Assembly (NCBI GenBank): GCA_963776345.1
Contig: CAVZMH010000002.1
Location: forward strand, 1-64,000
Direction of reading: 5' to 3'
DNA length: 64,000 nt
Source: an uncultured delta proteobacterium
GTDB taxonomy: Bacteria; Myxococcota; Myxococcia; Myxococcales; Myxococcaceae
Shown here one piece after another: positions 6,116 through 25,217 of this stretch (its first letter is position 1; every line of letters begins with the position of its first letter). The notes beneath the pieces were generated by a model. That model was not told where the DNA came from and did not search any database. It saw nothing but the letters and a program-made list of their open reading frames with translations. Both the position numbers and the translations under genes were made by a program.

Positions 6116-6128
6116 GCGGGCGCCCGGG

Positions 6129-9100
6129 TCAGTGCCCGGAACGCCGCCGCCGCAGCGAGAGCGCGAGCGCGGCCAGCACGAACGGCGCGAGCCCGGCGAC
6201 CGGAGCACCAGGCACCCCGCACCCGGCAGCGCCGGACCGCGTCGTCGTCGGCACGGAGAGCGCGCTGCTCCTCGTGGCGACGGCACGGGCGCTCGGGTCG
6301 CCCAGGAGATGGAAGGTCGCCCGGACGTCCGGGTCGGTGACGGCCTGCTTGGCGGCGAGGGTCGCGTCGCCCAGCGTCTTGCCGTCGTCGAGCGCGGCCG
6401 AGAGGAGCGCCCTGCTCAGCGTGGCGTGCTCGGTGGGCAGGGTCAGCGCCGAGGAGGCCCAAACGCCCCAGGCCCCGCCCTCGGGCGTGCGCAGCAGCGC
6501 CGCACCCAGGCTCTCTCTGCCGATGTCGATGAAGTAGGCGTTCAGGCAGGTCGCTGCGACGACGAGCGAGGCGCGGCCGGTGCCCGCGAGGGCATCCACG
6601 TCGGCCGTGGAGAGCATGCGCCCGTTCCAGAAATCCTCCGCCCCGTGCCCTTGGTAGTCGACGGCGATGGGTCCGGCGCGCAGCGCGTCGATCAGCGCGG
6701 CGTGGGTGACGGCATCGTCCATGCCCCGGACGAGCGCCTGCGTCGTCCAGCCGCTCAGCGCCGAGCGGACCTCGGCGGTCGCCGCCGAGAACTGGATGTT
6801 CCCGTCGCGGTCGCTGACCAGGAGAAGCCCGTCGTCGTGGCCCGGGAGGCGCCGTCCGAGGATCTTCGCCACCACCGCGTCCATCCGCTCCGGGGTCGAC
6901 ACGGGGAGGCGGCCGATGGCGACGCCGGGAAGGTCGACCAGGGCATCGTCGGAGGCGGTCTCGAGGTAGTGGGTCGGGACGAGGATGGTCGGCACCTGGT
7001 CGAGCTCCGGGTGGCCGAGCCAGCCGCGGGGGTCGTAGGTGGCCGCGCCGGCCAGCAGGACGAAGTGGGGCGTCGTGGACCAGCTGCGGACGGCGGCGGT
7101 GAGGAAGCTGCGGAGGGCCGTGGCGTCCTTCTCCCCGGCGGAGAACTCGTCGTAGACGTCCTCGATGTCGACCAGGGCCACGGTGAGCCCCTCGCGGGTG
7201 CGCTGGTCGGCCAGCGCGCGCAGGCTGGGGAGCAGCGCGCCGGTCCCGACGATGACTAGGTCAGCCCCTTGGGCCGAGTGCCAGCTGCTCGGGGCATTGG
7301 CGACGACGGTGGGCGCGAGCACGTCCTGGTCGCGGTAGGCGTAGAGGATGCGGGTCCCGCTCCCCGCGGCGGTCAGGCTCGCGCCACCGGGCGAGGCGGC
7401 GGTGACCACCGCGGCGGGGCTCAGGGCGCTGGTGATGTCGAGGACGTGCGCCCCCGGGGCGTCGGCGCCGGTCAGCTCGAGCTGTGCCCCGGCCGGGGCG
7501 GTGAAGCGGAGCGGTCCACCGAACGCGTACTGGCGGGGGTAGGTGAGTCGCTGCGAGAGCTCGAGGGCGATCTCGCTCGAGGTGCGCCCTACCAGCGACA
7601 CCGTGTTGTCCCCCGGGAGGAGCGTGCCGGGTGGAAGCGTGAAGCGCGCCGTGGCGACGTCCTGGTAGCTGCCCTCGACGGTGCCCACCCCGACGCCGTT
7701 GACCAGGACGTCCAGCGTGTGTGCGCCGGCGGTGAGACCCTGGATGCTCACCTCGAGCGTCGCGGCCTCCGGGGAGAGGAGGTCGAACGCCGGCGTGGAG
7801 AAGATGCGGTCCATCGGCTTGGTGCCGATAATCGGTGGACCGAAGAAGCCGTCCGTGTCGGGGTTGAAGAGCGCGGAGACGTGGAGCGTCCGGTCACGGA
7901 CCTCGAGCGTCTCTAGAAAGCTCGTGGCCGAGCTGGTGGCGTCCATGGCCGGTGCCGAGTGGATGAGGCTCGCGGCGCCGAGACCGTGCGTCACCCAGTA
8001 CGCCCGCGTGTCGGTGTAGCGGGTGTCGGCCGCCTGGCCGAAGAACTCGAGCGCGTCTCCGGGCTGTAGAGTGTTCCCTTCCGCCGAGAGCGCACGGAAG
8101 GCGATGGCACGGCCACCCGCCCAGAGCGCGAGCGAGGTGAGCGGCGTGCCCACCGGAAGCCCGGCCGCGAAGAGCTGGTCCGCAGGCACCCGGTACACCC
8201 CATCCTGCCGGACGAGGAGCTTGACCGCCCCGCTGCTGGCGGCGATCTCCCACTGCCGGACGAGGGTGGGGTCGCGCCACGCGCGGTCGAGCCCCGGGGG
8301 ATCTGCTGGATGGCCGGCGGAACCACCCTGGGCGACGAGGAGCGGGCTCGATCCGAGGGTGGCGACCAGCGCGGAGGACCGGAGACCCGAAAACGTGCCA
8401 CCGCGGGTCTGGACCGGACCGAACCACTGGCTCTGGCCCTTCAGGTCGATGGCCTCGATCCAGTAGCGCGCGCCGCTGCGCCGGCCCGGGTCGACGTAGG
8501 AGTAGTTCCGGCCGGCGACCGGGTCGAACCCGGCCCGGAGCGCCGAGCCGGCGATGAGGTCGCTCACCTCACGGCGCTGGCCGTTCTCCTCCCGGTAGAC
8601 GCGGTACCCCAGGTTCCGGATCTCCGTTCCGGCCTCCCAGGAGACCTCGGTGGCGCCGCCGCCGCTCACGGCGTCGAGCTTCACCAGCTCGACTGCGGTG
8701 GCGGGGGGGCCGACCTTGAGAAGCACGCTGCCGGCGCTCACTTGGTAGTCGTAGGAGAAGCCGGCGGGAGCGGTGCCCAGCGTCAGGGCGCTGTTGGTGA
8801 TGGCACCGGTGGCCGTGAACAGGGTGTACGTTCCCTGAGCAAACCCGGGACCGGCAGTGATGTTGAGGACGCCATTGAGCGTCAGTGCTCCGGTCACGGC
8901 ACCGCGGGTCGTGCTCGTCCCGACCGTGAAGTTCAGGACGGCGGTGTTGTTGAGATTGAGCGCGTTGGTGCTCAGGGTCCCGGTGCCGCCGGAGCCCGGG
9001 GTGTAGGAGGCGCCGGCGGCGACCGTGATCGACGCTGGGAGCGCGCCAGACCCGGAGAGCGTTCCTCCGTTGACCGCGACGGCAGCCTCCGTCGTCCCCG

Positions 9101-9686
9101 CCGCGTAGGTTCCGCGGAAGCTCAGCTGACCGGCGTTGATGGTGAACCCGCCGGTGTGCGTGCTCCCGGTTCCGGAGAAGGTGACATCGCCGGTGCCCGT
9201 CTTGGTCAACCGCCCGCCGAAGGCCATGGGCCGGGCGACCGTGTTCCCTGTCGAGCTGACCAGCCACGTTTGGTTGGCGCTGATCCGGAGCGTCCCGCCG
9301 GCGCCTCCGAAGCTGAACGTTCCATCCGCATTGACGCCATTGGTGATCCGGAAGTTGCCCGTCCCGGCGACACCGCTGATGGTCAGATTCACCCCAGCGA
9401 GTACGTAGATGGCACCAACGTTGGTGTTCCCGTTGGGGAGCACCGGCGTGGGATTCCCCGTGGTGAAGCACGCGTTGGCGAGGAAGCCCGGGGCTCCGGC
9501 GGGATTCCAGTTCGCGCCGCTGTTCCAGGCGCCGTTGACCGGCCCGATCCAAGTCTTCGCCCCACCGGGACACGTGACCTGCGCCGCCGCCGGAACGCCG
9601 GCGAGCAAGAGCACCAAAAGGCCGAGCCGCCTGAGCGTCGACGCGCTCGCGTTACGACTCCCGATCGCCAGCAGCACGTGGGTCAT
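6129..9686 (-). CDS. C25 (gingipain-family) cysteine peptidase with N-terminal autotransporter-like beta-strand passenger and C-terminal MYXO-CTERM-like anchor (copy B)
   Basis: Signal peptide and LTKTGTG repeat. C25 motifs: VDIEDVYDEFSAG, FVLLAG..YDP, IGRLPV, YQGHG (His), ATCLNAYF (Cys), FHLLGDP. Tail GCG..LAPFVLAALALSLRRRR. Its ATG overlaps the upstream stop (ATGA). Confidence 0.85.
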   Translation of the reverse strand: MTHVLLAIGSRNASASTLRRLGLLVLLLAGVPAAAQVTCPGGAKTWIGPVNGAWNSGANWNPAGAPGFLANACFTTGNPTPVLPNGNTNVGAIYVLAGVNLTISGVAGTGNFRITNGVNADGTFSFGGAGGTLRISANQTWLVSSTGNTVARPMAFGGRLTKTGTGDVTFSGTGSTHTGGFTINAGQLSFRGTYAAGTTEAAVAVNGGTLSGSGALPASITVAAGASYTPGSGGTGTLSTNALNLNNTAVLNFTVGTSTTRGAVTGALTLNGVLNITAGPGFAQGTYTLFTATGAITNSALTLGTAPAGFSYDYQVSAGSVLLKVGPPATAVELVKLDAVSGGGATEVSWEAGTEIRNLGYRVYREENGQRREVSDLIAGSALRAGFDPVAGRNYSYVDPGRRSGARYWIEAIDLKGQSQWFGPVQTRGGTFSGLRSSALVATLGSSPLLVAQGGSAGHPADPPGLDRAWRDPTLVRQWEIAASSGAVKLLVRQDGVYRVPADQLFAAGLPVGTPLTSLALWAGGRAIAFRALSAEGNTLQPGDALEFFGQAADTRYTDTRAYWVTHGLGAASLIHSAPAMDATSSATSFLETLEVRDRTLHVSALFNPDTDGFFGPPIIGTKPMDRIFSTPAFDLLSPEAATLEVSIQGLTAGAHTLDVLVNGVGVGTVEGSYQDVATARFTLPPGTLLPGDNTVSLVGRTSSEIALELSQRLTYPRQYAFGGPLRFTAPAGAQLELTGADAPGAHVLDITSALSPAAVVTAASPGGASLTAAGSGTRILYAYRDQDVLAPTVVANAPSSWHSAQGADLVIVGTGALLPSLRALADQRTREGLTVALVDIEDVYDEFSAGEKDATALRSFLTAAVRSWSTTPHFVLLAGAATYDPRGWLGHPELDQVPTILVPTHYLETASDDALVDLPGVAIGRLPVSTPERMDAVVAKILGRRLPGHDDGLLLVSDRDGNIQFSAATAEVRSALSGWTTQALVRGMDDAVTHAALIDALRAGPIAVDYQGHGAEDFWNGRMLSTADVDALAGTGRASLVVAATCLNAYFIDIGRESLGAALLRTPEGGAWGVWASSALTLPTEHATLSRALLSAALDDGKTLGDATLAAKQAVTDPDVRATFHLLGDPSARAVATRSSALSVPTTTRSGAAGCGVPGAPVAGLAPFVLAALALSLRRRRSGH

Positions 9687-10150
9687 CCGCAGGTCCCGCC
9701 GTTCTCGTTGCAGCTGCCCGCGCAGCACGGGTTCGTGGGCGAGCAGGCTGTGCCAGTTGGCAGCCCCACCGTGCAGGCCGACGCTGCCTCTGCGGCCCGC
9801 GGGACGGTGATCGCCAGGATCAGCGGGATCGCCACCAGGCCGGCACGGACCAGCCTCCTCCGCGACAGGTCGACGCCTCGCGGCAGGTCAACTGGGACGG
9901 CGTCCAGAAGCCCCGCTTCGCCCATCTCGCGAAGCGTTCCGTTCACCAGCTCCGCCTCGAGCGCCGCATGGCGCGCGATCGCCCTGACGTCACGCGTGCC
10001 GTCGATCGCTTCCCACACCCGCGCCGCCGCCGCGTTCAGACAGAACGCCCGGTGCGTCGCCTCGACGTAGAGCAGCGTCTCGCCGTCGAGCTCTTCGGAG
10101 ATGAGCCCATTCGCCCGGCGCCGGGGGACGAAGCCGCTGGAGTGAGCCAC
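9683..10150 (-). CDS. PqqD/RRE-domain protein fused to twin-Arg-like leader and Cys6 core peptide (copy B, 155 aa)
   Basis: EELDGETLLY..AFCLNAAAARVWEAIDG is RRE/PqqD-like. It is followed by SRRRLVRAGLVAIPLILAITVPRAAEAAS and the core ACTVGLPTGTACSPTNPCCAGSCNENGGTCG. The GTG start gives the same length as the paralog. Confidence 0.85.
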   Translation of the reverse strand: MAHSSGFVPRRRANGLISEELDGETLLYVEATHRAFCLNAAAARVWEAIDGTRDVRAIARHAALEAELVNGTLREMGEAGLLDAVPVDLPRGVDLSRRRLVRAGLVAIPLILAITVPRAAEAASACTVGLPTGTACSPTNPCCAGSCNENGGTCG

Positions 10151-10262: not shown

Positions 10263-13200
10263 TCAGCTCGGTCGGGACCGTCGCGCGGCAAACGCCAGAA
10301 CGACGAGAACGATCGGGGCGAGCGCGGCAGCCGGTTCACCCGTGCTCCCGCATCCGGAAGCGCCGGACCGGGGCCGGGTCGGAACGGACAGCGCGCTGCT
10401 CCGGGCGAGGGTGGCCCGCGCACTCGGGTCGCCGAGCAGGTGGAACGTGGCGCGAACGTCCGGGTCGGTCACGGTCCGCTTCGCCTTGAGCGTGGCCTCT
10501 CCGAGCGTCAGCCCGTCGTTCAGCACCGCGGAGAGCAGCGTCTTGCTCAGCAGCGGGTGCTCGATGGGAATCGTCGGGGCGGAGGACGCCCAAACTCCCC
10601 AGGCGCCACCGTTCGAGGTGCGGAGCAGCGCGGAGCCCAGGCTCTCGCGCCCGATGTCGATGAAGTAGGCGTTCAGGCAGGTCGCGGCAACGAAGAGCGC
10701 GCTCTTGCCGGTGCCGGCAAGCGCATCGGCGTCTGTCGTGGCGAGGATCCGGCCTCCCGTCCAGAAGTCCTCCGCACCGTGCCCCTGGTAGTCGACGGCG
10801 ACGGGGCCGCCGCGGAGCGCGTCGAGGAGCGCCGCGTGGGTGGCCGCGTCGAGGGCCTTCTGTTCCGGGTCGGTGCCCGTCCCACGGGCAATCTCCTGGA
10901 TCGTCCAGCCCGAGAGGGCGGCCTGCACCTCGGCAGAGGCCGCGGAGAAGGAGCTGATGCCGTCATGGTCGTGGACCATGAGCAGCGCATCGCTCGGCAC
11001 CGCGAGCCGGCGGCCCACGATCTTCGCCACTGCCGTGTCCATCTCGGCAGCGGTGGGCATCGGGAGCCGGCCGACCGCCAGGGCCGGCTCGGTCGCGCCG
11101 TCGAAGGTGACCAGCGCGTCGTCCGATGCCGTCAACGTCTCGAACTGGGGCGTCTGCGCCCAGATGAACATCGTCGGGACCTGATCGAGCTCGGGGTGCC
11201 CGAGCCAGCCACGGGGGTCGTAGGTCGCGGCGCCCGCAAGCAGCACGAACTGCGGTGCGGTGGACCAGTTCTGTGCGGCGTTCGCGAGGAAGGCACGGAT
11301 CGCCGTCGCGTCCTTCAGCCCCGCCGAGAACTCGTCGTAGACGTCCGCGATGTCGACGAGCGCGACCCGGAGACCCTCGCGGGTCCGCGCATCGGCGAGC
11401 GGTTGGAGGCTGGGGAGGAGCGTCCTGGGGCCGATGATGACCAGGTCCGCGCCGGGCGCGCTGTGCCAGCTGCTCGGGGTGTTGGCCACGACCGCAGGCG
11501 CGAGCACGTCCTGATCGCGGTAGGCGTAGAGGATCCGCGAGCCGCTCCCCGGGGCAGTGAGGGTTGCGGCGGAGGCGCCGGCGGTGGTCGGCACAGTCGA
11601 TGGCCTGACCACACTGGTAACGTCGAGCACGTGCGCGCCCGCGGCAAGCGTGCCCAGGAGCTGTACCAGCGCTCCGCCGGGAGCAGTGAACCGCAGCGGT
11701 CCGCTCATCGAATAATGGCGTGGATAGGTGAGCCGCTGCGAGAGCTCGACCGCGATCTCAGTCCCGGCGCGGCCAACGAGCGTGACGGTGTTGTCTCCAG
11801 CGAGCAGCGCCCCCGCCGGAAGGGTGAAGGTCGCCTTCGCAACGTCCTGGAAGACGCTCTGCACCGTTCCGACGGTCGTGCCGTTCACCTTGACGTCCAC
11901 GGCATGCGCCCCGTTGGTGAGGCCCTGGAGGCTGATCTCGAGGAGGGCAGGCTCCGCCGAGGTCAGATCGATGGCAGGGGTGGAGAAGGTCCGGTCCATC
12001 GGCTGGGTGAAGATGATGAACTTACCGAAGAACCCGCCTGTCTCCGGATTCTTGAGAGCGGGGATGTGCAGCGTCCGATCGCGGATCTCGAGCGTCTCGA
12101 GGAAGCTGGTGGCGGTCGAGCTCGGCTGGGCCGCCGGGGCGACATCGATGAACGTCGGCGTGCCCAGCCCGGCGGAAACCCAGTAAACGCGGGTGTCGGT
12201 GTAGCGGGTGTCGGCTGCCTGGCCGAAGAACTCGATCGCGTCACCGGGCTGCAGGGTGGTGCCGTTCGCGGAGAGAACGCGGAAGGCGACCTGCCGCCCG
12301 CCGGCCCAGAGCTGGATGGAGGACAGGGGCGTTCCCACCTGCAGCCCCGCGGCGAAGAGGGCGTCGGCGCCGACGTGGTACACCCCATCCTGACGGACGA
12401 GGAGCTTCACCGCGGAACTCGCGGCAACGACCCACTGCGACGCGAGGTTCCGGTCGTTCCACGACCGGCTGTAACCGGGAGGATCCACCGGAGTCCCCAT
12501 CGGCCCACGATCGGCCTGCAGCAAGTTCGCACCGAGGTTGGCCACGAGCGTCGCGTCCTGGATCTGCTTCCCGGAGAGCGTGCCCGAGCGAGACTGGACC
12601 GGGCCGAACCACTGGCTCTGGCCCTTCATGTCGATCGCCTCGAGCCAGTACTGCGCACCCGCGTACCCGTTGGCGTCGGTGAAGGCGTAGTTCCGGCCAG
12701 CGAGCAGGTCGCTCCCAGCGCGAAGAGCCGATCCGGCAATCAGGCCCGGGTTGATCTGCACGCGCCGTCCGCCCTCGTCGCGGTACACGCGGAACCCCAG
12801 GTTCCGGATCTCCGTTCCGGCCTCCCAGCTGATCCGGGTCACGCCCCGGCTAGTGACCGCGTCGAAGCCCGCGAGCTCCACCGCTGTCGCCCCGGGACCG
12901 ACCTTGAGCAGGACCTGCGAGGCGGTCACCTGGTAGTCGTACGAGAAGCCCGCCGGGAGGGTCCCGGTGCGCAGGGCGTTGTTCGTCACCGCCCCGGAGA
13001 AGTTGAACAGCGTGAAGGTGCCCTGACCGAAGCCGGTGCCCGCAGTGACGTCGAGCACGCCATCGAGCGTGAGGGCGCCGACGGTCGCGCTGGTCGACGT
13101 GGTGCCGAGGGTGAAGTTCAGGTTGGTGGTGTCCGCAAGGACAAGACCTCCGGTCGTCAGTGTCCCCGCGCCGCCCGACCCGGGCGTGAGGGTCGCGCCG

Positions 13201-14789
13201 GCGGCGACATTCGCACCGCCATTGACGGTGCCCGCTCCCTGAAGGAGGCCTCCCGCCGCAACGGAGACACCGGACGTGTTGAGCGTTCCGTCAACGGTCA
13301 GCGTGCCATTCGCTCCGATCGAGACCGCGCCTTCGCCTGTCAGAGTCCCGGTCACCGCGAGCGTTCCGCCGTTCGCGGCCATGGTGATGCCACCGGTGTG
13401 GGCTCCGCCGGTCGAGATCGTGAGCGTCCCTGCGCCGATCTTGGTCAGCGCGCCTGCGCCGGTGACTGCTCCGAGCGTGAGGTTGGTCCCCGTGTCGAGC
13501 GTCGTCGCCCCATTGAAGGTCGCAGTGCCGGTCAGGGTCTGAGGGGCGGTCCGAACCGCCCAGGTTCCACTGGTGAAGATGACGTTCGCCGGGAGCGAAC
13601 TGGAGTTGGTTTCCCAGGTCACCCCGTCCACGGTCAGGTCCACCGCGGGGAACGTGAACGCCGAGTTCAGCCGCACCGTGCCGGTCCCGTCGCCGCGGAA
13701 GAGCATCGGCAACGCTGTGTTGACCGAGGATCCGGCGCCCATGATGATCACGCCGCTCGCCCGCGGAGTCAGGACGAGGGTGCCCAGCGCACCCATGTCG
13801 AGCGTGCTGGTGTACGTCAGCGTGGCCCCGCTGTCCGCGCCAAGGATGGTTCCGGTTCCGGAGACCGATCCGTTGGAGATTGGCAAGCCGACGGTGTTGG
13901 TCTGCGCCACATGGAGGCCCTGGTCGAGCCCGGAGCCGCTCGGGTTCGTTCCAAGCGTTCTCAGGACCACCGTTCCAGCGCCCGACACCGGGCCGGCGAC
14001 CCAGAGCGCGGAGCCGGCGCTCGTCTTGGTGAGGGCGCCATTCAGAGTCAGCCCGCGAACGGTTACCACCGTTCCCGCAGCGCCGGTGAGGCCCCCGAGG
14101 GCGAGGTTGGTGCCCGCGTTGACGGTCAACGTCCCAAGCGTGTAGCGGTTGCCGCTCGTCTGACCGTTGATGGTTCCAGCGGCACCGTCAGCGACGACGG
14201 ACGTCGCGTAATCGGTGTTGTTGGGGGCGTTGAGATTGAGCGTTCCACTCGTGAGAGTGAACGCGCTCGACATCGCACCCGCGCTGTTCGCAAAGAGCGT
14301 CCCTCCGTTCCAGTCGATCGCGCTGAGCTGGGTATTGTCGCCCGAGAACGTGAAGGAGCCAGCGCCGGTCTTCGTGAGCGTGAATCCCGTGCCGACCAGG
14401 TTTCCGGCCATCGAATTCGCCCCACCTCCGATGCTCCAGGTCTGGCTGGCGGTCAGGATGATGGCCATCGTCGAGTCGAAGGTCAGGTTGCCGACGTTGC
14501 GGGTGAGTCCCCCCACGCCGATCCCGAGGACGCCACCGACGCTTGTGAAATTGGAGGTCGAGTTGACCGTCAACGAAAGCAGATCCCCGTCGATATCCAT
14601 GACGATCGTCGGGAGGCCGCTGAGCGTCACCAAGTCGCCCGGATTCGGAGGACCCGGAGGCGTCCAGTTGCTGGGGGTGCTCCAGTTGCTGTCCGTGGCC
14701 CCCGTCCACGTGAACGAACTCTGCGCCTGGGAGAACCCCCCAACCAGCAGGACCGTGACCAGCGCGGAACGAACGACGTGGCTTCTCAC
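10263..14789 (-). CDS. C25 (gingipain-family) cysteine peptidase with long beta-strand-repeat passenger and MYXO-CTERM-like anchor (copy A, ~1508 aa)
   Basis: The GTG start overlaps the NTase stop (GTGA). Signal peptide, LTKTGAG/LTKIGAGTL repeats, YQGHG and ATCLNAYF dyad, and tail GCGS..LAPIVLVVLAFAARRSR. Confidence 0.85.
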   Translation of the reverse strand: MRSHVVRSALVTVLLVGGFSQAQSSFTWTGATDSNWSTPSNWTPPGPPNPGDLVTLSGLPTIVMDIDGDLLSLTVNSTSNFTSVGGVLGIGVGGLTRNVGNLTFDSTMAIILTASQTWSIGGGANSMAGNLVGTGFTLTKTGAGSFTFSGDNTQLSAIDWNGGTLFANSAGAMSSAFTLTSGTLNLNAPNNTDYATSVVADGAAGTINGQTSGNRYTLGTLTVNAGTNLALGGLTGAAGTVVTVRGLTLNGALTKTSAGSALWVAGPVSGAGTVVLRTLGTNPSGSGLDQGLHVAQTNTVGLPISNGSVSGTGTILGADSGATLTYTSTLDMGALGTLVLTPRASGVIIMGAGSSVNTALPMLFRGDGTGTVRLNSAFTFPAVDLTVDGVTWETNSSSLPANVIFTSGTWAVRTAPQTLTGTATFNGATTLDTGTNLTLGAVTGAGALTKIGAGTLTISTGGAHTGGITMAANGGTLAVTGTLTGEGAVSIGANGTLTVDGTLNTSGVSVAAGGLLQGAGTVNGGANVAAGATLTPGSGGAGTLTTGGLVLADTTNLNFTLGTTSTSATVGALTLDGVLDVTAGTGFGQGTFTLFNFSGAVTNNALRTGTLPAGFSYDYQVTASQVLLKVGPGATAVELAGFDAVTSRGVTRISWEAGTEIRNLGFRVYRDEGGRRVQINPGLIAGSALRAGSDLLAGRNYAFTDANGYAGAQYWLEAIDMKGQSQWFGPVQSRSGTLSGKQIQDATLVANLGANLLQADRGPMGTPVDPPGYSRSWNDRNLASQWVVAASSAVKLLVRQDGVYHVGADALFAAGLQVGTPLSSIQLWAGGRQVAFRVLSANGTTLQPGDAIEFFGQAADTRYTDTRVYWVSAGLGTPTFIDVAPAAQPSSTATSFLETLEIRDRTLHIPALKNPETGGFFGKFIIFTQPMDRTFSTPAIDLTSAEPALLEISLQGLTNGAHAVDVKVNGTTVGTVQSVFQDVAKATFTLPAGALLAGDNTVTLVGRAGTEIAVELSQRLTYPRHYSMSGPLRFTAPGGALVQLLGTLAAGAHVLDVTSVVRPSTVPTTAGASAATLTAPGSGSRILYAYRDQDVLAPAVVANTPSSWHSAPGADLVIIGPRTLLPSLQPLADARTREGLRVALVDIADVYDEFSAGLKDATAIRAFLANAAQNWSTAPQFVLLAGAATYDPRGWLGHPELDQVPTMFIWAQTPQFETLTASDDALVTFDGATEPALAVGRLPMPTAAEMDTAVAKIVGRRLAVPSDALLMVHDHDGISSFSAASAEVQAALSGWTIQEIARGTGTDPEQKALDAATHAALLDALRGGPVAVDYQGHGAEDFWTGGRILATTDADALAGTGKSALFVAATCLNAYFIDIGRESLGSALLRTSNGGAWGVWASSAPTIPIEHPLLSKTLLSAVLNDGLTLGEATLKAKRTVTDPDVRATFHLLGDPSARATLARSSALSVPTRPRSGASGCGSTGEPAAALAPIVLVVLAFAARRSRPS

Positions 14790-15883
14790 GGCACAACCCC
14801 CTTGCCGACCGTCGCGAGCTGCGAGTCCAGGCCCACCCGCCAGCGAAGGTCTCGACGCGCGAAGTCCGCCGCACGGCGCAAGCACTCGGCCAGCTGCACG
14901 GCGACCCGTGGAACTGCGCGGAACGGCGCGCGTAGGTGGACGGTCGCGCTCACCGGATCCGGCCAGCGGTCGCGGAGCGCCCGGAGCGCGCCAGCCCAGC
15001 CCAGCTTTCTCAGCTCGTAGAGCGAGGGAGGCATGCTCTCGTACCCGTGAACCCAGCCGTGGAGAACCGCGCCGCGCAACCATCCGGGCACCGCCACCCT
15101 CGGTGTCCCCGTGGGAGGGCTTGCGCCGAGCAGTTCCTCTGCAAGCGCGACGGTCGCGAGCACGCCCTCGCTGAGGTGCGCGTCGCCAGCCAGGCATGTC
15201 TCCCAGGAGAAGTCCGGCGGGAGCGCCGCGAGCAGTACCGCGATGTCACAGAGCCACAGCGGTCGCCAGCCGCCATGGTGCAGCTGGTGGATGGCGACCA
15301 GCCGGAGGTGGTCCTCCCAGGACAGAACCCGAAACCTCGCCCGACCGAGTGACTCCGGGCGCGAACGCCCGAACAGCTCGGACTCGGTCCGATCCGGCAG
15401 ATAGCGGGCCAGCGTCTCGGGCGTGTCCACATCCGCGCGCGACTGGAGGTCCGAGCCAAGCGCGCGGAGGACGGCGCGGGCCCGCTCGGCCTCATCCACA
15501 CGAACGAGCAGGTCGAAGTCGCCGAACGGACGAAGCGCGCGGTGGGGGTAGAGCCGGGCGAGGCTCCACCCCTTGAAGAGGATGGGCTCGATCCCTGCCG
15601 CATTGAAATGAGCGAGGAGGTGGGGAAGGTCGCGTTCCTGTCTCGCCGCCGTGAGCGCGTGATGCTGGAAGGCAGCGCGGAGCGCCGCGAGCTCGGGAAC
15701 CGTTGCCAGCTCGGTCTCCCTGAGCCGCCACCAGGCGAGCCCACCGACACCCCCTGCGATCAGCCGCTCGATCCAACGCTGGAGGTCGACCTCCGGTCTC
15801 GCCACGGGCGGTGCGTCGGCTGCCCACGACCTCCAAAGCACGCCGGCGATGGCCAGCGCGAGCCGCTGCTCCGACTTCGTCAT
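14786..15883 (-). CDS. Nucleotidyltransferase family protein (NTP_transf_5-like)
   Basis: AGIEPILFKGWSLARLYP..LRPFGDFDLLV motif, plus EDHL..H..H and WLCD. Its ATG overlaps the upstream TGA. Confidence 0.85.
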   Translation of the reverse strand: MTKSEQRLALAIAGVLWRSWAADAPPVARPEVDLQRWIERLIAGGVGGLAWWRLRETELATVPELAALRAAFQHHALTAARQERDLPHLLAHFNAAGIEPILFKGWSLARLYPHRALRPFGDFDLLVRVDEAERARAVLRALGSDLQSRADVDTPETLARYLPDRTESELFGRSRPESLGRARFRVLSWEDHLRLVAIHQLHHGGWRPLWLCDIAVLLAALPPDFSWETCLAGDAHLSEGVLATVALAEELLGASPPTGTPRVAVPGWLRGAVLHGWVHGYESMPPSLYELRKLGWAGALRALRDRWPDPVSATVHLRAPFRAVPRVAVQLAECLRRAADFARRDLRWRVGLDSQLATVGKGVVP

Positions 15884-16347
15884 CCGCAAGTCCCGCCGTT
15901 CTCGTTGCAGCTGCCCGAGCAGCACGGCGTCGTGGGTGAACAGGCCGGCCCACCCGGCAGGCCCACCGTGCAGGCCGACGCCGCCTCCGCTGCCCGCGGG
16001 ACGGTGATCGCCAGGATCAGCGGGATCGCCACCAGGCCGGCACGAACCAGCCTGCGCCGCGACAGGTCGACGCCGGGCGACAGATCCTCCGGAACCGCCT
16101 CCAGCAGCCCCGCCTCGCCCATCTCGCGAAGCGTTCCGTTCACCAGCTCCGCCTCCAGCGCTGCATGGCGCGCGATCGCCGTGACGTCACGCGCGCCGTC
16201 GATCGACTCCCAGACGCGCGCTGCGGAAGGATTGAGGCAGAACGCCTTGTGCGTCGCCTCGACGTAGAGCAGGACTTCACCGTCGAGATGCTCGGTGACG
16301 AGCCCGCTCGGCTGGCGCCGCGGGACGAAGCCACTGGATGAGGCCAT
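15880..16347 (-). CDS. PqqD/RRE-domain protein fused to twin-Arg-like leader and Cys6 core peptide (copy A, 155 aa)
   Basis: Paralog of 9683..10150 with core ACTVGLPGGPACSPTTPCCSGSCNENGGTCG. Confidence 0.88.
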   Translation of the reverse strand: MASSSGFVPRRQPSGLVTEHLDGEVLLYVEATHKAFCLNPSAARVWESIDGARDVTAIARHAALEAELVNGTLREMGEAGLLEAVPEDLSPGVDLSRRRLVRAGLVAIPLILAITVPRAAEAASACTVGLPGGPACSPTTPCCSGSCNENGGTCG

Positions 16348-16653: not shown

Positions 16654-17952
16654 GTGCTTCTCTGCGCACCCTGGGTCCTGACCTCGCTTCTCGCCGCCAC
16701 CGCGGCGAGTCCGGAGTCACTCGACCTTTCCAGCTCCCCTTCAGACCTCGAGCTCGTCGCGGTGCTCTGGTCTCGTTCGCCGGACCTGGTCGCCGCCCGC
16801 GCGCGGCTCGGCCAGGCCGAGGCCGACGTCACCCGCTCCGAGGTCCTCCCCAATCCGGGCTTCGACTTCCAGTGGGGCACCCTCGCGCTCGGCCCCACCA
16901 ACCCGCCCGGCCTCGACAAGCTCGCCGACGTCCCCAACTACGCCTTCACCCTCAGCCAGCCGGTGGAGATCGGCAAGCGCGGACCCCGCAAGGCCGCCAG
17001 CCGCGCCAGCCGTGACGCCGCGGCGTTCGACGCGCTGGAGATGCTTCGCCAGCGCTGGTTCGACCTGCTGGAGCGCATCTCCGAGGTCGCCACCGCGGAG
17101 ATCCGCGTCGGGGCGCTCGACGAGACGGTGAGGGACGCGCAGCGCCTCGCTGATCTCCAGCTCGAGCGCCAGAAGCGCGGCGACATCGCCGGCCTCGACG
17201 TCGACCGGGCGGTGCTCGAGGCAGAGAAGTACGCCTCGAACCTCGGACAGGAGCGGGAGAGGCTCGCCACCGCGCTCCTCCTCTGCGCCCAGACCGTGGG
17301 CCTCCCCTGCCGCCCCTTCGGGAGCCCCGACGTGGCGCGCGCCTTCCTCGGCGCCCGGCTCGCCGCGAGCCCTCCGGCGCCGAACCTCGATCAGCGCCCC
17401 GACCTCCGCTCGCTCCAGGCGCAGGAGGCGGCCGCCCGGTCGAGCCTCACCCTCGCCGAGCGCCGCTGGATCCCCGACCCCACCTTCCGGCTGGGGTACG
17501 TGCTCGATCAGTTCGTCATCGCGGGCAACCAGCACCAGAGCCTGATGGTCGGGGTGAGCATCCCCCTGCCCTTCTTCGACCACGGCCAGGCCGACGCCAA
17601 GGCCGCAACGGCGATCGCCGAGGCCGCGGGCCAGGCGCGGCTCCTGCTCCAGGCGGCCAGCATCCGGGACCTCACCTCGCTCGAGCAACAGCGCATCAAC
17701 GCGCTCGCCCGACGCGCCCGGCTCCAGGACCGCACGCTGCCCCTCGCCCGCGACGTGGTGCAACGCCTGGAGAGCGCCGTGACCCGGGGCGGCGCACCGC
17801 TGCCGGACCTCCTGCTCGCGCGGCGGACGCTGGGAGACCTCCAGCTCGACGCCGCCGATCTGGATCTCTTCGCCTTCCACCTCACGGTGGCGCACGCCCG
17901 CGCCGCCGGGGAGCTGCCCCCCTTGCCGGAGAACGTTCCACATGTCCCTTGA
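16654..17952 (+). CDS. TolC/CzcC-family outer membrane efflux protein
   Basis: LPNP..SQPVEIGKRGPR, RPDLRSL, VGVSIPLPFFD; first gene of the RND triad. Confidence 0.85.
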   Translation: MLLCAPWVLTSLLAATAASPESLDLSSSPSDLELVAVLWSRSPDLVAARARLGQAEADVTRSEVLPNPGFDFQWGTLALGPTNPPGLDKLADVPNYAFTLSQPVEIGKRGPRKAASRASRDAAAFDALEMLRQRWFDLLERISEVATAEIRVGALDETVRDAQRLADLQLERQKRGDIAGLDVDRAVLEAEKYASNLGQERERLATALLLCAQTVGLPCRPFGSPDVARAFLGARLAASPPAPNLDQRPDLRSLQAQEAAARSSLTLAERRWIPDPTFRLGYVLDQFVIAGNQHQSLMVGVSIPLPFFDHGQADAKAATAIAEAAGQARLLLQAASIRDLTSLEQQRINALARRARLQDRTLPLARDVVQRLESAVTRGGAPLPDLLLARRTLGDLQLDAADLDLFAFHLTVAHARAAGELPPLPENVPHVP

Positions 17953-19120
17953 AGTCGGCTCCGCCATCCAGGGCTTCCGCCGGACCCGCCCCTCGCTGCT
18001 GGTGGGCGGCGGCGTCGCGCTGGTCGCTCTGATCTTCGCCAGCTGGCTCCTGCTCCGCACCCGCGAGACCGCCCCCGAGACCATCCATCGGCTCAGCGTG
18101 CAGGGGAACACCATCCACATTCCCGACCAGGCGCCGCAGTGGCGCTACGTGGAGCTCTCCGTCGCCAGCGAGGCCCCCCCGCTCCCGCCGCCACCGGTGC
18201 CCGGACGGGTGGGCTTCGACGAGAAGCGCACCGCCTCGCTCAGCGCCCCGCTCCCGGGCCGTGTGGAGCGGGTGCTGGTCCGGACCGGAGATCGGGTCCA
18301 GGAGGGCGACCGGATGTTCAACGTCCGCTCCGCTGCGTGGGCCGATCTGGAAAGGGAGATGGCGTCGGCCCGGGCCAACGTCGAGGTGAAGAAGCGCATC
18401 GCCGCGCGCACCCGCGAGCTGGTGGCCATCCGGGCAGCCCCGGAGAAGGACGCGCTCGCCGCGGAGGCGGACCTGCACGAGGCCGAGCTGGCCGCGCGCG
18501 CCTCGGCGGCCAAGCGGTCCTCGCTGCGCATCGCCCCCGAGGGAGACAACCTCTTCTGGGTCATCGCCCCGCGCTCCGGCACGGTGGTGGACCTGGACGT
18601 GGTGGCGAGCCAGGAGGTCCAGCCCTCGGGAGAACATCCGCTGGTGCGCATCTCCGAGCTGTCCGAGGTGCTGGTGCTGGCCGACGTCCAGGAGAGCGAC
18701 GCCTATGACCTCCACGTCGGCGGAGAGGTGACCATCCGCACCCGCGCGGGGAGCGTGACCCGGACGGGCACCATCGAGCGGATCTCCGAGGTGGTCGACC
18801 CGAAGCGGCGCACCGTCGAGCTGCGGATCCGCGCCGCCAACCAGGACCGCGCGCTCCGGCCCAACTCCTTCGTCGACGTCGAGCTCCAGTCCGACCCGTC
18901 GCAGAAGCGCATCCGCGTCCCCGCCGAGGCGGTGGTCACCGACGGCCAGAGCTCGGTGGTCTTCGTCTCTCGCGGCGAGGGGCAGCTGGAGCGAGTCGCC
19001 GTCACGCCCGGGCGACAGCGCGGCGGGGAGATCGAGCTGCGCTCCGGGCTGCAGCCCGGGAGCCGCTTCGTGAGCAAGGGTGCCATCCTGCTCTTGAACC
19101 AGCTCGAGCTGGAGCACTGA
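17942..19120 (+). CDS. RND efflux periplasmic adaptor (CzcB-like)
   Basis: N-terminal TM, PGRVERVLVRTGDRVQEG, APRSGTVV, VDPKRRTV, LRPNSFV. Confidence 0.9.
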   Translation: MSLEVGSAIQGFRRTRPSLLVGGGVALVALIFASWLLLRTRETAPETIHRLSVQGNTIHIPDQAPQWRYVELSVASEAPPLPPPPVPGRVGFDEKRTASLSAPLPGRVERVLVRTGDRVQEGDRMFNVRSAAWADLEREMASARANVEVKKRIAARTRELVAIRAAPEKDALAAEADLHEAELAARASAAKRSSLRIAPEGDNLFWVIAPRSGTVVDLDVVASQEVQPSGEHPLVRISELSEVLVLADVQESDAYDLHVGGEVTIRTRAGSVTRTGTIERISEVVDPKRRTVELRIRAANQDRALRPNSFVDVELQSDPSQKRIRVPAEAVVTDGQSSVVFVSRGEGQLERVAVTPGRQRGGEIELRSGLQPGSRFVSKGAILLLNQLELEH

Positions 19121-19122
19121 CC

Positions 19123-22100
19123 TTGTTCCAGGGCCTGGTCGACTTCTCGCTCCGGAACAAGCCCGCGGTCCTGGCGCTCACCGCGGTGGTCGCGGTCTGG
19201 GGCTGGCTCTCGTTCCGCGATCTGACCGTCGAGGCGTTCCCCGACCCGACCGAGACGCAGGTCCAGGTCATCACCCTCTATCCGGGGCAGCCGTCCGAGG
19301 AGGTGGAGCGGCAGCTGGGCCTCCCGCTCGAGCGGGCGCTGAACGGCATCCCGCAGCTGTCTCACCTGAGAAACCTCTCCCTGTTCGGGCTCTCCTTCGT
19401 CACCCTCACCTTCAACGACGGCGTCGACGGGCTGTGGGCGCGCTCTCAGGTCCTGGAGCGGCTCCGCGAGGCCGACCTCCCCGACGGCATCGTCCCGCAG
19501 CTCGGTCCCTACGCCACGCCGATCGGCGAGGTGTACCGCTACACGCTGGCGGGCGCGGGCGGTGACCCGATGAAGCTCCGCACGCTTCAAGACTGGGTGG
19601 TGCGCCCCGCGTTCCTCCGGGTGAACGGCGTGGCGGACGTGGTGAGCATCGGCGGGCTCCAGCGGGAGATCCACGTGCAGCCCGACCCCTCGCGCCTGGC
19701 GGCCCACGGACTGACGCTGGCCTCGCTCGAGCAAGGCATCAAGGGCGGCAGCGTGAACGCCTCGGGCGGCGTGCTCGAGCGCGGCGCGGAGCAGCTGGTC
19801 ATCCGCAGCGAGGGCCTCTTCACCACGGTGGAGGACCTCAAGGCGGTCCGTCTGGCCACCGAGGAGGGGACGCCGGTCTTCCTCAAGGACGTGGCCACGG
19901 TGACCGAGGGTTGGTCTCCGCGCCAGGGGGTGGTCAGCCGCAACGAGTCGATGGACACCGTGCAGGGCGTGGTGCTGATGCGCCGGGGCGAGAACCCCTC
20001 GCAGGTGCTGGCGCGGATCCGCACCGCGGTGAAGGGCATCGACCGCCGGCTCGCGGTGGACGGCGTGAAGCTGGACCCGTTCTACGACCGGACCGACCTG
20101 GTCGGGACCACGCTCCGTACCGTCGGACGCAACCTGCTCGAGGGCGCGGTGCTGGTGACCCTGGTCCTCTTCGTCTTCCTGCTGGACCTGCGCGCGGCGC
20201 TGGTGGTCGGCACGCTCATCCCGCTCTCGCTGCTCACCTCGTTCATCTACCTGCACCTGCGCGGGATGAGCGCCAACCTCCTCTCGATGGGGGCGGTGGA
20301 CTTCGGGGTCATCGTCGACGGCGGGGTGGTCATCGTCGAGGCCATCCTCGCCCGCATGGCGGTGTCGCGGAGCACGGCGGAGACGGTGGAGCAGAAGATC
20401 CGCGAGGCGACCACCGCGGTGGTCCGGCCCACGGTGTTCGCGCTGCTGATCATCATCGCCGCCTACCTCCCCATCTTCCTCCTGCAGCGGGTGGAGGGGC
20501 GCATCTTCTCCCCGATGGCCAACACGGTGGTCTCGGCGCTGGCCGGGGCGCTGTTCTTCTCGGTCACCCTGGTCCCGGTGCTCGCCGCGCTGGTGTGGCG
20601 GAAGCCGGTGACCCACGGCGAGTCGCCGCTCCTCTCCTGGGTCGCCGCGCGCTACGAGCCCTCGCTTCGCTACTGCCTGAAGCATCCGGCGCTGCTGCTC
20701 GGCTCGGTGGCGCTCCTGCTCACCGGCGCGGCGCTGGTCATGCCCCGGCTGGGGAGCGAGTTCCTCCCCGAGCTCAACGAGGGCGCGCTGTACATGACCT
20801 TCACCCTCCCGGCGAACAGCTCGCTCACCGAGGGACGGAAGCTGGTGCCGCGCATCACTCAGCTGCTCCAGGGCGCGCCCCAGGTCGAGTCGGTGCTCTC
20901 GCAGCTCGGCCGCCCCGAGGACGGCACCGACGCGAAGCTGGCCAATAATCTGGAGTTCTTCGTCAAGCTGACCCCGCCGGACCGCTGGCCGCGCGAGACC
21001 CCCACGCTGGGGAGCGTGCTGGACGTGCTGCAGCAGCGCATCGCGGAGATCCCGGGCATCGAGGTGAACTTCAGCCAGCCCATCCGTGACAACGTCAACG
21101 AGAGCATCAGCGGCCAGCAGGGGCAGATCGCGGTGAAGCTCTACGGCGACGACCTGGCGGCGCTGCAGGCGCAGGCCGAGAAGGTGAAGGCGGCCATCTC
21201 CCGCGTGCCCGGGGCCGCGGACCTGGCGCTGGTGAAGAGCGCCTCGGTGCTTCAAGTGAGGGTCAAGCCGAACCGGGTGGCGCTGGCGCGCTACGGCATG
21301 GACCTCGGCGACTTCCAGCACGTCTTCCAGACCGCGCTCGGCGGCCGCCCGGTGGCGGACTTCTGGGAGGGAGAGCGCAAGTTCGACGTGGTGCTCCGCC
21401 TCCCCCCGGCCGATCGCGACGACGTGGAGAAGATCCGCTCGCTCCGGGTGCCGGTGGACGGAGGCCTGACCATCCCGCTCTCGGCGCTGGCCGACGTGGA
21501 GACCGGCGTGGGGCGGGCGAGCATCAACCGGGAGAACGGCCGGCGGTACATCGGCATCCGGATGAACGTGCGCGGCCGGGACATGGGCGGCTTCGTCAAC
21601 GAGGCGCGGGAACGGGTGGAGGCCGAGGCGCCGCTGGGCAAGGGCATGTCCATCGAGTGGGGCGGGGAGTTCGAGAACAAGGAGCGGGCGATGGCCCGGC
21701 TGGCGACGGTGGTGCCGGTGGCGCTGCTGATCACCCTGGTGCTCCTGTTCAAGGCCTTCGACTCGCTGTCCCTGGCCTTCCTCACCCTGCTCAACGTGCC
21801 CTTCGCGCTCCTGGGCGGGGTGTTCGGCCTTTGGGCGTTCGGGTTCCCGCTCAGCGTCTCGGCGGCGGTGGGATTCATCGCCCTCATCGGGCAGGCGTCG
21901 CTCAACGGGGTGCTGGTGCTCTCGGCGATCGCCGGGAGGCGGGAGGCCGGCGAGCCGCTGGACCAGGCGATCATGGCCGGCGCCCGGGAACGCCTGCGGC
22001 CGGTGCTGATGACCGCCAGCCTGGCGGCGCTGGGCCTGGTGCCGGCGGCGCTCTCGCGGGGGATCGGCAGCGAGACCCAGCGACCGCTGGCGGTGGTCAT

Positions 22101-22747: not shown

Positions 22748-24376
22748 ATGACCGGGTCGGCGCCTACCAGGTTTTGGCGCGGCGTGCGCGAGCCCTGGGA
22801 GCTGCTGGGGCGCATGCGCGAGGACCGCCGCCTGTGGTCGCGCTACTGGCGCACGGTGCTGGTCCAGGCCGGGCTGACCCTCGTCGCCGGTCTGGCGGTC
22901 TTCTGGGTCGGAAAGCAGGGTGCGGAGGCCTGGAACGACGCCTTCGGGCCGGAGGAGCCAGCCGCGACGAGCACCGCGCCGGCGCCACGCCCTCCGGTCG
23001 TTTCGAAGCCTTCCGGACCCGCGCCCTCTCCGCCGGCCCGCCCGGCTCCCCCTCCTCCCGCGGTCCAGCCGCACGGGGCAGCGGCCACCCCGGCCACGGC
23101 AGGCGAGCAGCGCCCCGCCCCCGAGCAGGCCGCGGCCGACGACGAGGACGCCGAGGAGACCGAGGACGCCGCGGACACCGGGCTGGAGGCGCAGATCGAC
23201 GCCCTCAAGAACGCGACCCCGGAGGAGCGCGGCAAGCGGACCGCCGAGCTGGTCGCCGCGGCCGTGGCCCGGGCGCAGAAGGAGGCAGGCCGCGCGGGGC
23301 AGCGCAAGGGCAAGGCGAACGACGCGGCCTCGGAGCTTGCCGACGACCGCGAGGCGGTGAAGGACACCCTCGAGGAGCTTGCCCTGGCCGCCGAGGTCCT
23401 GGCGCGAGAGCCTCCCCGGAGCGCGGGCGCGTCACGCAAGGCCCGACGACACCTCGAGCGCAAGCTGGACCAGGTGGAGAAGGAGGCCGCGACGCTGGAA
23501 CGCAAGGGCGCGCCCCCGCTCTCCGAAGCGGAGCGGGCGCAGCTGGAGCGCGCGCGGGCGGCCCTCATGGTCGTCCACCGGCACGAGCGGGGACTGGCCG
23601 GACGCCTCGGCGCGGTGCTCGCGCTGCTGGCGGCGATCTACGCCTCGCTCAGCATCGCCCAGACCGGCGTGCTCGCGCTCTCCCGCGACTTCCACGACGC
23701 GCTGTCGCGTGAGCTGTCGCTGCTGGTCCAGCTGGCGCCGGAGGATCCGCCGATGCGGCCGAAGATCCGGCTCGACCTGCCGTGGGTTCGGCGGAAGGCG
23801 AACCGCCGCGCGCAGTTCTTCCTCGGGTTCCTGCCCGGCCAGGCGCTGATCTCGGTGCTGGGCTGGCTCGTGCCTCCGCACCGCACGCTGACCACCGTGC
23901 TCACCACGATCTGGGCGGCGTACTGGTGGATGGTGATGACCGCCGGACAGAGCGCGCGCGCCTGGAGCCCTCCCGAGCGCACGCCCCGGCCCTGGTACCT
24001 GAGGGGCTGGTTCGCGCTCACCGAGCGGTTCTTCCTCTTCCGCTGGGCGCTCCCGCGCATGTTGGGGCGCATCTGGGAGCGGATGGCGAGGCGGTTCTAC
24101 GGGCCGTCGGAGCGGGTGGAGGAACAGCCATTCGAGTTCGCCGGCCTCGCGCTCAGCCGCGCACTGACCCTGGTGCCGGTGGTGAAGCTGCTGCTCCGCC
24201 CGGTGTTCCCGGTCTCCGCGGCCCACCTGCTCGTGGAGCATGCAGCGACTGCTCGGTTGCCGGTCGCGGTCACCGCCGCCGAGGTGGCGGACGCCGCGGC
24301 CCACGCGCCGGACCCCGAGGCCCGCGCCCACTCGGGAGCTGTCGCGCCTGGGCAAGGTCCCGCGCCAGCGCGATGA
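22748..24376 (+). CDS. Hypothetical membrane protein with Pro-rich and coiled-coil region
   Basis: Several TM segments and a long helical insert; coding-like sequence. Confidence 0.6.
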   Translation: MTGSAPTRFWRGVREPWELLGRMREDRRLWSRYWRTVLVQAGLTLVAGLAVFWVGKQGAEAWNDAFGPEEPAATSTAPAPRPPVVSKPSGPAPSPPARPAPPPPAVQPHGAAATPATAGEQRPAPEQAAADDEDAEETEDAADTGLEAQIDALKNATPEERGKRTAELVAAAVARAQKEAGRAGQRKGKANDAASELADDREAVKDTLEELALAAEVLAREPPRSAGASRKARRHLERKLDQVEKEAATLERKGAPPLSEAERAQLERARAALMVVHRHERGLAGRLGAVLALLAAIYASLSIAQTGVLALSRDFHDALSRELSLLVQLAPEDPPMRPKIRLDLPWVRRKANRRAQFFLGFLPGQALISVLGWLVPPHRTLTTVLTTIWAAYWWMVMTAGQSARAWSPPERTPRPWYLRGWFALTERFFLFRWALPRMLGRIWERMARRFYGPSERVEEQPFEFAGLALSRALTLVPVVKLLLRPVFPVSAAHLLVEHAATARLPVAVTAAEVADAAAHAPDPEARAHSGAVAPGQGPAPAR

Positions 24377-25217
24377 GCGCGCGCGCCGTCTGCCCCGCCG
24401 GTCCACGGTCGCCACGGAATCCGCGGGCGCCGGCCGTGGCGCGAGCCAGCGCCGCCAGCACCTCGCCCGGACGGTCGCGTGCCGGGACGGTGTTCGCCAG
24501 GAGCGCGAGCACGCATTCGCCAGCCGAGAGCGGGGCGAGCTCCCACCGGGCGCCCTTCCGGTAGCGGGTGTGGACGATGAGGCCGACGGGGACCGGTGTC
24601 CGGCCGCGGACGCGGGGGACCGGATGCCGCTCCTTTCGCCCTCCCCGGACCCGGACGCTGGGACGGCGCGGGTACGGGTGGACACGGCCAGCGGTGTCGA
24701 GCACGGCGTACTCGTCCGAGTAGTAGGTGGCACCCGCCTCGACGAGCGCGCGGACGAGCGTGGTCTTCCCGGCGCCGGATCGGCCCGGCACGAGGATCGC
24801 GCGGCCTCCGACGGCGACCACCCCGGCGTGGACGAACACCTCGGGCCGTGCGAGCCGGGCGACCGAGAGCTGCAGCTCGCTCTCCAGGACGTCGAGGGCC
24901 TGTGCGTGGCTCAGCCCCCGCGCGACTGGCTGTCCGTCCAGGCGAACGGACAACCCGTACACCGGCCTGGACCTCGCGCCTGGCCCGCCCGTCCGTCCCG
25001 CGGCACCCACCGTCCCGCTCGAGGTGTCGTTCGAGGTGTCAGACACCTCGTGGACCAGGGAGAGGACGACGGCAGGCGCCTGGCGGGCCACGGTCCAGCC
25101 AGGAGGGAAGCGGGCGCGCACGGCGGGGAGCAGGCGGCGGTCATCGACCCGGGCCTCGAACGGGACTCCGAACGCGACGCCGCGCAGCACTCCGGCTCTC
25201 ACCGCACGTTGACGCAT
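24270..25217 (-). CDS. HPr kinase-related P-loop kinase
   Basis: FVHAGVV..GRAILVPGRSGAGKTT..GATYYSDE (HprK-like His, Walker A and SD(D/E) signature). The 3' end overlaps the convergent gene. Confidence 0.8.
   Translation of the reverse strand: MRQRAVRAGVLRGVAFGVPFEARVDDRRLLPAVRARFPPGWTVARQAPAVVLSLVHEVSDTSNDTSSGTVGAAGRTGGPGARSRPVYGLSVRLDGQPVARGLSHAQALDVLESELQLSVARLARPEVFVHAGVVAVGGRAILVPGRSGAGKTTLVRALVEAGATYYSDEYAVLDTAGRVHPYPRRPSVRVRGGRKERHPVPRVRGRTPVPVGLIVHTRYRKGARWELAPLSAGECVLALLANTVPARDRPGEVLAALARATAGARGFRGDRGPAGQTARALIALARDLAQARQLPSGRGPRGPARGPRRPPPRRR
25021..25050. repeat. GAGGTGTCAGACACCTC palindrome (25033-25049) plus an extra half-site, inside the kinase CDS
   Basis: Read directly from the sequence. 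Confidence 0.75.

Follow-up and report, generated by a model that had tools for sequence, protein, structure and literature searches.

A small gene in the window (the whole stretch of 64,000 nucleotides analyzed here) encodes a protein in which an RRE domain, an internal twin-arginine leader, and a Cys-rich core follow one another in a single chain. This is a real, conserved precursor architecture, and apparently an undescribed one: no description of an RRE-twin-arginine-Cys fusion was found in the literature searched, which was mostly non-subscription, with the caveat that the LPP Supplementary Data could list fused cases. The available text of the RRE-Finder paper mentions other RRE fusions only. 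With moderate confidence, we read this protein, called copy A, as a RiPP precursor resembling those of the linear polyphosphorylated peptides (LPPs; lppA/K/B/S/D/N, Popov et al. 2026, PMC13381572); it would combine chaperone, leader, and cargo in one chain, be exported by the Tat route, and have its product released by a signal peptidase. The features discussed are collected in Table 1.

Table 1. Copy A, its parts, and associated genes in the window (residue numbers are those of copy A)
Feature	Positions	Strand	Remarks
Copy A gene	15880..16347	minus	RRE, internal RR leader, and Cys core; 155 aa
PqqD/RRE domain	16096..16347	minus	Residues 1-84; three strands and three helices; F36, L38, and N39 of strand 3 face the leader
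Internal twin-arginine leader	15982..16062	minus	Residues 96-122; SRRRLV, h-region, P109-x-I111, P117, AEA
Predicted RRE-binding strand	16006..16023	minus	P109-I114; PxV/I motif, with Val rather than Tyr/Trp at P-3
Ser124 (P+15)	15976..15978	minus	Candidate phosphorylation site
Predicted mature core	15883..15981	minus	Residues 123-155; six Cys; 2952 Da monoisotopic with three disulfides
Nucleotidyltransferase (NTP_transf_5)	14786..15883	minus	ATG overlaps copy A stop (ATGA); G-D-x-D motif intact
Large secreted passenger + C25 (PorU-like) peptidase	10263..14789	minus	MYXO-CTERM-like tail; GTGA overlap with nucleotidyltransferase stop
Copy B (paralogue)	9683..10150	minus	132/155 residues identical to copy A
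Second passenger + C25 protein	6129..9686	minus	GHG and TCLN motifs intact; weak MYXO-CTERM match (E 0.012); ATGA overlap with copy B stop
HprK-related kinase	24270..25217	minus	His, Walker A, SDE; start codon estimated

The preliminary description of this DNA had placed all three parts in one chain, and they do lie in one intact reading frame, with a GC3 of 0.85 and a purine-rich run 5' of its ATG. The twin-arginine motif occupies residues 96 to 101 and is followed by an uncharged run of 15 residues (the family median is 22) and by AEA at 120 to 122. Is the signal truly internal, as had also been claimed, or could a downstream start codon turn it into an ordinary N-terminal Tat signal? Met76 is the sole in-frame start codon in residues 71 to 100 of both window copies, and column 76 is Leu in 86% of the family. 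The signal is therefore internal, and the internal-start alternative was rejected for copy A; elsewhere, an in-frame ATG, GTG, or TTG occurs somewhere in the linker in 31 of 48 related loci. A lipoprotein reading was rejected by inspection, there being no lipobox and Cys I co-varying with Cys IV.

A leader motif scan of the organism's own genome returned three paralogues only: copies A and B, and a third on contig C12. Between copies A and B, leader residues 96 to 124 carry five synonymous codon differences and no nonsynonymous ones; the RRE carries 18 and 16, respectively. At 5552-6392, a cassette end and the truncated tail of a regulator, judged by eye to be of sigma54 type, share 87% identity with the third cassette's end (contig C12, 181547-182272), where the regulator is whole. 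That identity suggests a duplication that carried a fragment of the regulator along.

How widespread is the architecture? A phmmer search with the whole protein returned 513 clusters (50% identity) at E ≤ 1e-10 and 3480 at E ≤ 0.001, the weaker of which may include plain RREs. Among 147 aligned relatives, of which 145 represent separate 50%-identity clusters, conservation reaches 99% for R97 and R98, 96% for P109 and P117, and 83 to 100% for the six Cys residues. Conservation of this kind across the family argues that the architecture is not due to chance. Since phmmer had used the whole protein, an independent set of 50 genome loci was retrieved with an RRE-only pattern. The twin arginine is present in all 50 (43 by regular expression and 7 by eye; one locus is cut by a contig end), and so is the fusion of RRE to leader. 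Their hosts are mostly Acidobacteriota, with single records from Methylomirabilota, Nitrospinota, Armatimonadota, and Binatia. Within the organism's own phylum, the distribution is patchy as judged by sequence matches, near-full-length ones occurring in at least 15 of 401 genomes. The closest named homologues, from Myxococcaceae and Vicinamibacteria, are called "PqqD family protein"; others are "hypothetical."

Does the RRE ever part from its precursor? No natural split form was found among matches to tail and leader profiles. All 10 matches to a leader-only profile in five other genomes are RRE fusions, one of them frameshifted, and the 21 viewed of 41 tail-only-profile matches proved to be N-terminally truncated fusions or mis-called starts. 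An apparent split in one genome (G205, L040:11144-13108) reflects a transposase gene inserted between the RRE and the leader of one copy. Kinase-RRE fusions, which made up five of seven long matches, were set aside as probable frameshift artifacts because they are single-member clusters with garbled junctions. Behind the leader, the cargo is variable: mostly Cys-rich, in some members built of tandem repeats, collagen-like, or Thr/Pro-rich, and in some followed by what looks by eye like a Hint domain. In family member P0181, for example, a Hint/intein-like domain (by eye) comes after the Cys core. A different RRE fusion (L041:1182-1802, plus strand; G073:C140) has short C-terminal Pro/Ser/Thr repeats in place of the RR leader and Cys core, and the next gene encodes a 187-residue protein without a Pfam match.

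The N-terminal domain had been described as a PqqD/RRE fold of about 85 residues, and residues 25 to 65 indeed match Pfam PqqD (PF05402) above its gathering score (E 6.4e-6; 26.9 bits against a cut-off of 23.4); 112 of 113 family members match it at E ≤ 0.05. A full-length AF2 model built on a 113-sequence alignment (mean pLDDT 84.8, pTM 0.70) superposes best, over residues 7 to 85 or so, on the lasso RREs TfuB1 and TbiB1 (6jx3 and 5v1u; Z 9.1, rmsd 1.8-2.0 Å, 75-77 residues aligned). Regulators also match this winged-helix fold, at Z 4-5. The modeled strands are 16-21, 24-29, and 34-38, plus an extra one at 111-114 in the leader. As all other strands of three or more residues lie in the RRE, one of these has to be the partner of the extra strand. 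It is absent from a tail-only model, which is of low confidence (pLDDT 65) and rests on a shallower alignment (29 sequences).

Coevolution points to the same contact. Mean-field DCA on 207 sequences (Neff 184; 9076 pairs) ranks C126-C143 first (z 11.4) and F36-A113 second (z 9.6), the latter being the top RRE-leader pair; N39-P109, F36-I114, and G71-I108 are also among the top 22. His36 is paired with Ser or Thr at 113 in 86 of 87 de-replicated sequences. On a FastTree tree, 26 phylogenetically independent pairs differ at position 36, and column 113 is concordant in 12 of them, discordant in none, and tied in 14; other leader columns are weaker against column 36. This antiparallel register matches that of the LppB-LppA crystal structure, in which N33 holds P-13 in place and L32 forms part of the wall of the V-11 pocket, according to the available text (PMC13381572). 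In the same source, the aromatic residue of [Y/W]xxP matters for leader binding in LPP; the copy A family has Val, Ile, or Ala instead, and tethering in cis may compensate for the missing aromatic. On this modeling and covariation, the RRE likely binds its own leader as a fourth strand, and the earlier idea of a self-chaperoning precursor gains computational support from the AF2 strand, with its tail-only control, and from coevolution. The leader may also be bound in a swapped dimer rather than within its own chain.

The leader that carries this strand also looks like an export signal. Its SRRRLV fits the Tat consensus Z-R-R-x-hydrophobic-hydrophobic (available text of PMC13673990), and the family profile agrees. 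The consensus Phe is mostly replaced (Phe in 3% of members at that position), and the Tat-signal model TIGR01409 does not match copy A and matches 10 of 113 members at E ≤ 0.01. The host genome encodes TatA/B and TatC. Downstream of the arginines, Ala is conserved at P+11 (68%) and P+13 (82%), which makes a signal-peptidase cut after A122, by the -1/-3 rule, the likeliest. It would release a core of 2952 Da when oxidized. The core had been put at 31 residues; its six Cys stand, and the likeliest cut gives 33 residues with Ala-Ser at the N terminus. Tat-type export of a disulfide-bearing core is favored by the conserved RR motif, the presence of TatA and TatC, even Cys counts, and the precedent of FecR, whose Tat signal comes after a folded domain in the cytoplasm. 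In the available text (PMC13673990), that signal is said not to be cleaved, so that the cleavage proposed for copy A is without direct precedent there.

What kind of cargo would be exported? Of 133 parsed cores, a set biased towards the Cys pattern of the query, 118 have an even number of Cys, 10 an odd number, and 5 none; in the RRE-pattern loci (n = 50), the corresponding figures are 46, 2, and 2. CxxC occurs in 24 of the 133. The spacing in copy A is the one first described, C-x9-C-x5-CC-x3-C-x6-C (C126, C136, C142, C143, C147, and C154), and its C-C-CC-C-C order is found in 56 of 68 six-Cys cores. The nine-residue first loop is present as well, but it is a local expansion: columns 127 to 129 are absent in most of the 147 aligned sequences. 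Of the connectivity proposed (I-IV, II-V, III-VI), the I-IV bond is supported by sequence covariation, since Cys I and Cys IV disappear together in 14 of 18 cases (p 2e-10, uncorrected for kinship) and C126-C143 is the top DCA coupling; II-V and III-VI are inseparable from other Cys pairs. A cystine knot is likely for the predicted core. Matches of the core to Pfam and PDB entries of ICK families are weak, and fold searches with the tail model gave no match at Z ≥ 2 and one spider venom peptide at E 9.7. Fusions of MauE to a double thioredoxin adjoin the cassette in 2 of 50 loci (L086:14097-15650 and L089:9821-11374), where they are possible dedicated disulfide-forming helpers; no homologue was found in the window's own genome.

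One residue of the cargo is held more firmly than its surroundings. Position P+15, Ser124 in copy A, is Ser or Thr in 113 of 119 anchored representatives (of 151) and in 41 of 46 anchored loci (of 50). Eight of nine Cys-poor cargos keep it, and it does not change although its neighbors and the cargo as a whole do. The LPP consensus YxxPxV...S places the phosphorylated Ser 15 residues past the Pro (P-13 to S3 of LppA; available text of PMC13381572). Given this register, and given that an HprK-like kinase and an NTP transferase are encoded nearby, a combination also known from LPP and pseudomycoidin, Ser124 would be the best candidate phosphorylation site. Its conservation could also reflect a signal-peptidase preference or ancestry. 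Thr replaces Ser in 19 to 37% of members; LppK did not accept Thr, and deletion of lppN had no visible effect, as far as the available text goes (PMC13381572). For pseudomycoidin, PsmN is described as required for the hexose on phospho-Ser (available texts of PMC6993621 and PMC8498205). The window kinase is the sole homologue in its genome and lies 8 kb upstream of copy A, past an RND efflux operon. TIGR04352 is the best NCBIfam match in 31 of 31 kinases of the family, the window kinase scoring 68.5 bits, below the cut-off of 200; TIGR04353 is weakly matched by 38 of 113 RREs. PDB sequence searches with kinase and nucleotidyltransferase profiles returned nothing informative.

The genes around copy A lie in the order copy A, NTP_transf_5, passenger-C25, copy B, passenger-C25, with stop/start overlaps at three junctions. 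The preliminary description had passed over the co-encoded kinase, nucleotidyltransferase, and C25 genes as well as the conserved Ser124, which together give the locus the look of an LPP-type pathway for a modified peptide. In the 50 RRE-pattern loci, several of which have short or truncated flanks, same-strand neighbors include a nucleotidyltransferase in 39, a kinase in 32, and a GHG-bearing C25 protein in 18 (clustering counted 20, in two of which no C25 motif is visible). Genes of the O-antigen-ligase, Wza-type, and sugar-dehydratase kinds are repeated neighbors, found in 8 to 11 loci. In both giant passenger proteins of the window, the PorU-like C25 domain retains its His/Cys motifs and a MYXO-CTERM-like tail follows; the Acidobacteriota homologues stop after the C25 domain and lack an anchor. 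Among 46 further same-strand neighbors (heuristic ORF caller), one of which is a full asparagine synthase in a sugar-gene context, no signal peptidase, B2, or ABC exporter turned up. Nor did the recurrent-cluster representatives and the further neighbors scanned include a SipW-like peptidase or an MsbA-like exporter, and lasso B2 (PF13471) was not found in the 98%-complete genome. The RND operon (OEP, HlyD/CusB, and AcrB-type; 16654-22314, plus strand) sits between kinase and copy A, an arrangement repeated in one other genome (G080, L034), and is absent from the clusters that recur across the family's loci. A conserved protein of about 435 residues without a Pfam match adjoins the cassette in six loci (e.g., L061:5532-6845).

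How might these components work together? To begin, the RRE would very probably take up the leader strand P109-I114 of its own chain along strand 3, in the way lasso and LPP RREs bind their leaders; model and covariation both point this way, and binding would mask the h-region of the export signal. An HprK-like kinase would then, with somewhat more confidence than doubt on our part, phosphorylate Ser124, after which NTP_transf_5 may decorate the phosphate by analogy with PsmN. Once released, SRRxLV would probably engage Tat, the C-terminal part crossing the membrane and the RRE staying inside in a FecR-type topology. Finally, a housekeeping signal peptidase would, fairly probably, cut after AEA, and the peptide of about 3 kDa would form three disulfides. 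The cell surface, speculatively, would be the destination of the product, as hinted at by the neighboring PorU-like C25 proteins and polysaccharide genes. A broader proposal, which we regard as doubtful in its entirety, is that one leader serves as both RRE-binding strand and Tat signal, that the fused RRE is a modification-dependent export gate, that the products are phospho(glyco)sylated cystine-knot mini-proteins, that PorU-like C25 transpeptidases attach these to surface glycans or giant proteins, and that all this constitutes a widespread RiPP class.

Could the same features be explained without any peptide chemistry? The RRE would then only proofread its own Tat signal, the peptide would leave unmodified, and the kinase and nucleotidyltransferase would serve a glycan precursor or the C25 proteins. 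Such a reading accommodates the 18 of 50 loci with no kinase within their flanks and the 11 with no nucleotidyltransferase (some flanks are truncated), the frequent setting among polysaccharide genes, and the silent lppN deletion. It is unlikely all the same: Ser/Thr at P+15 is fixed, the nucleotidyltransferase gene is translationally coupled to copy A, and the leader had no carriers other than RRE fusions in the organism's own genome and the five others.

Two further readings dispute the fate of the core. Copy A might be a FecR-like transmembrane signaler, with an uncleaved, Tat-inserted anchor and a periplasmic Cys sensor, its winged-helix RRE relaying to the kinase or nucleotidyltransferase; the topology does match the Class V Tat substrates (available text of PMC13673990), and the regulator matches to the RRE model would suit. 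The conserved AxA, an uncharged run of just 15 residues in copy A, the hypervariable cargo, and best structural matches that are peptide-binding RREs make this quite unlikely. Very unlikely, in turn, is that copy A is not a Tat substrate, the RR helix instead docking a RiPP enzyme and the Cys core staying in the cytoplasm, binding metal, or leaving by another way. The weak HMM support for a Tat signal, an AF2 model in which 97-102 form a short helix, and the adjoining RND efflux operon speak for it. Set against it are a twin Arg that is 99% invariant in a Tat-like context, even counts in 118 of the 128 Cys-bearing cores with CxxC in few, the co-loss of Cys I and IV, and the MauE-thioredoxin fusions at two loci, and the efflux operon is not among the recurring clusters.

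If the preferred reading of an LPP-like, Tat-exported precursor is true, it would matter in several ways. (i) A RiPP leader would double as a Tat signal, with the RRE as its built-in proofreading chaperone, joining two fields and adding a cleaved example of FecR-type Tat topology, which is rare. (ii) Ser124 would be a precise substrate residue for an orphan pair of HprK-like kinase and NTP_transf_5, a pairing met in LPP and pseudomycoidin too. (iii) Behind annotations as mere "PqqD family" or "hypothetical" proteins would lie natural disulfide-rich scaffolds of bacteria, numbering in the hundreds to thousands and coming largely from uncultured Acidobacteriota and Myxococcota. (iv) There would be a handle on the role of PorU-like C25 proteins outside Bacteroidota.

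Which known systems does the family resemble? With the inhibitor cystine knots (conotoxin framework VI/VII and spider ICKs) it shares the C-C-CC-C-C order and the supported I-IV pairing; its cores, in contrast, come from bacteria, abound in Gly, Ser, and Thr, and have few charged or aromatic residues, with nothing pointing to toxin activity. The HPr-rel-A cassette (TIGR04352 kinase, TIGR04353 PqqD-family chaperone) supplies the best match to the kinase and a weak one to the RREs, yet the window kinase falls far under the TIGR04352 cut-off. The PqqD protein of that cassette is a discrete domain that is not known to carry a leader or cargo. The Class V Tat substrates represented by FecR have the same succession of folded cytoplasmic domain, internal RR signal, and extracytoplasmic domain; they differ in their uncleaved signal, whereas copy A has the conserved AxA and an N-terminal RRE predicted to bind the signal itself (available text of PMC13673990). 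The phosphorylated and glycosylated lasso peptides, paeninodin (PadeK) and pseudomycoidin (PsmK/PsmN), offer a B1-type RRE fold, an HprK kinase, and a nucleotidyltransferase (available texts of PMC8498205 and PMC6993621), but copy A has a fused RRE, a Cys core, and no C-terminal Ser, and neither a B2 in its genome nor a recurrent lasso cyclase was found.

The closest likeness is to LPP, as described in the available text (PMC13381572). Shared are the set of RRE, HprK-like kinase (compared by class), and uncharacterized NTP transferase; the PxV leader motif with a Ser exactly 15 residues past the Pro; a conserved leader before a variable core; and frequent placement among polysaccharide genes. 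There are also differences. The RRE is fused in cis in the copy A family and discrete in LPP; the leader has RR, an h-region, and AxA, and no Tyr at P-3; the SipW-like peptidase and MsbA exporter of LPP were not found near the family's genes; the core is disulfide-rich, with C25 neighbors; and the family has its hosts in Acidobacteriota, Myxococcota, and other groups instead of Bacillota. The fused RRE and the lack of a dedicated peptidase or exporter place the family outside LPP proper. It is best classed as a putative RRE-dependent phosphorylated-RiPP variant, one that has an LPP-like tailoring set and the same Ser register.
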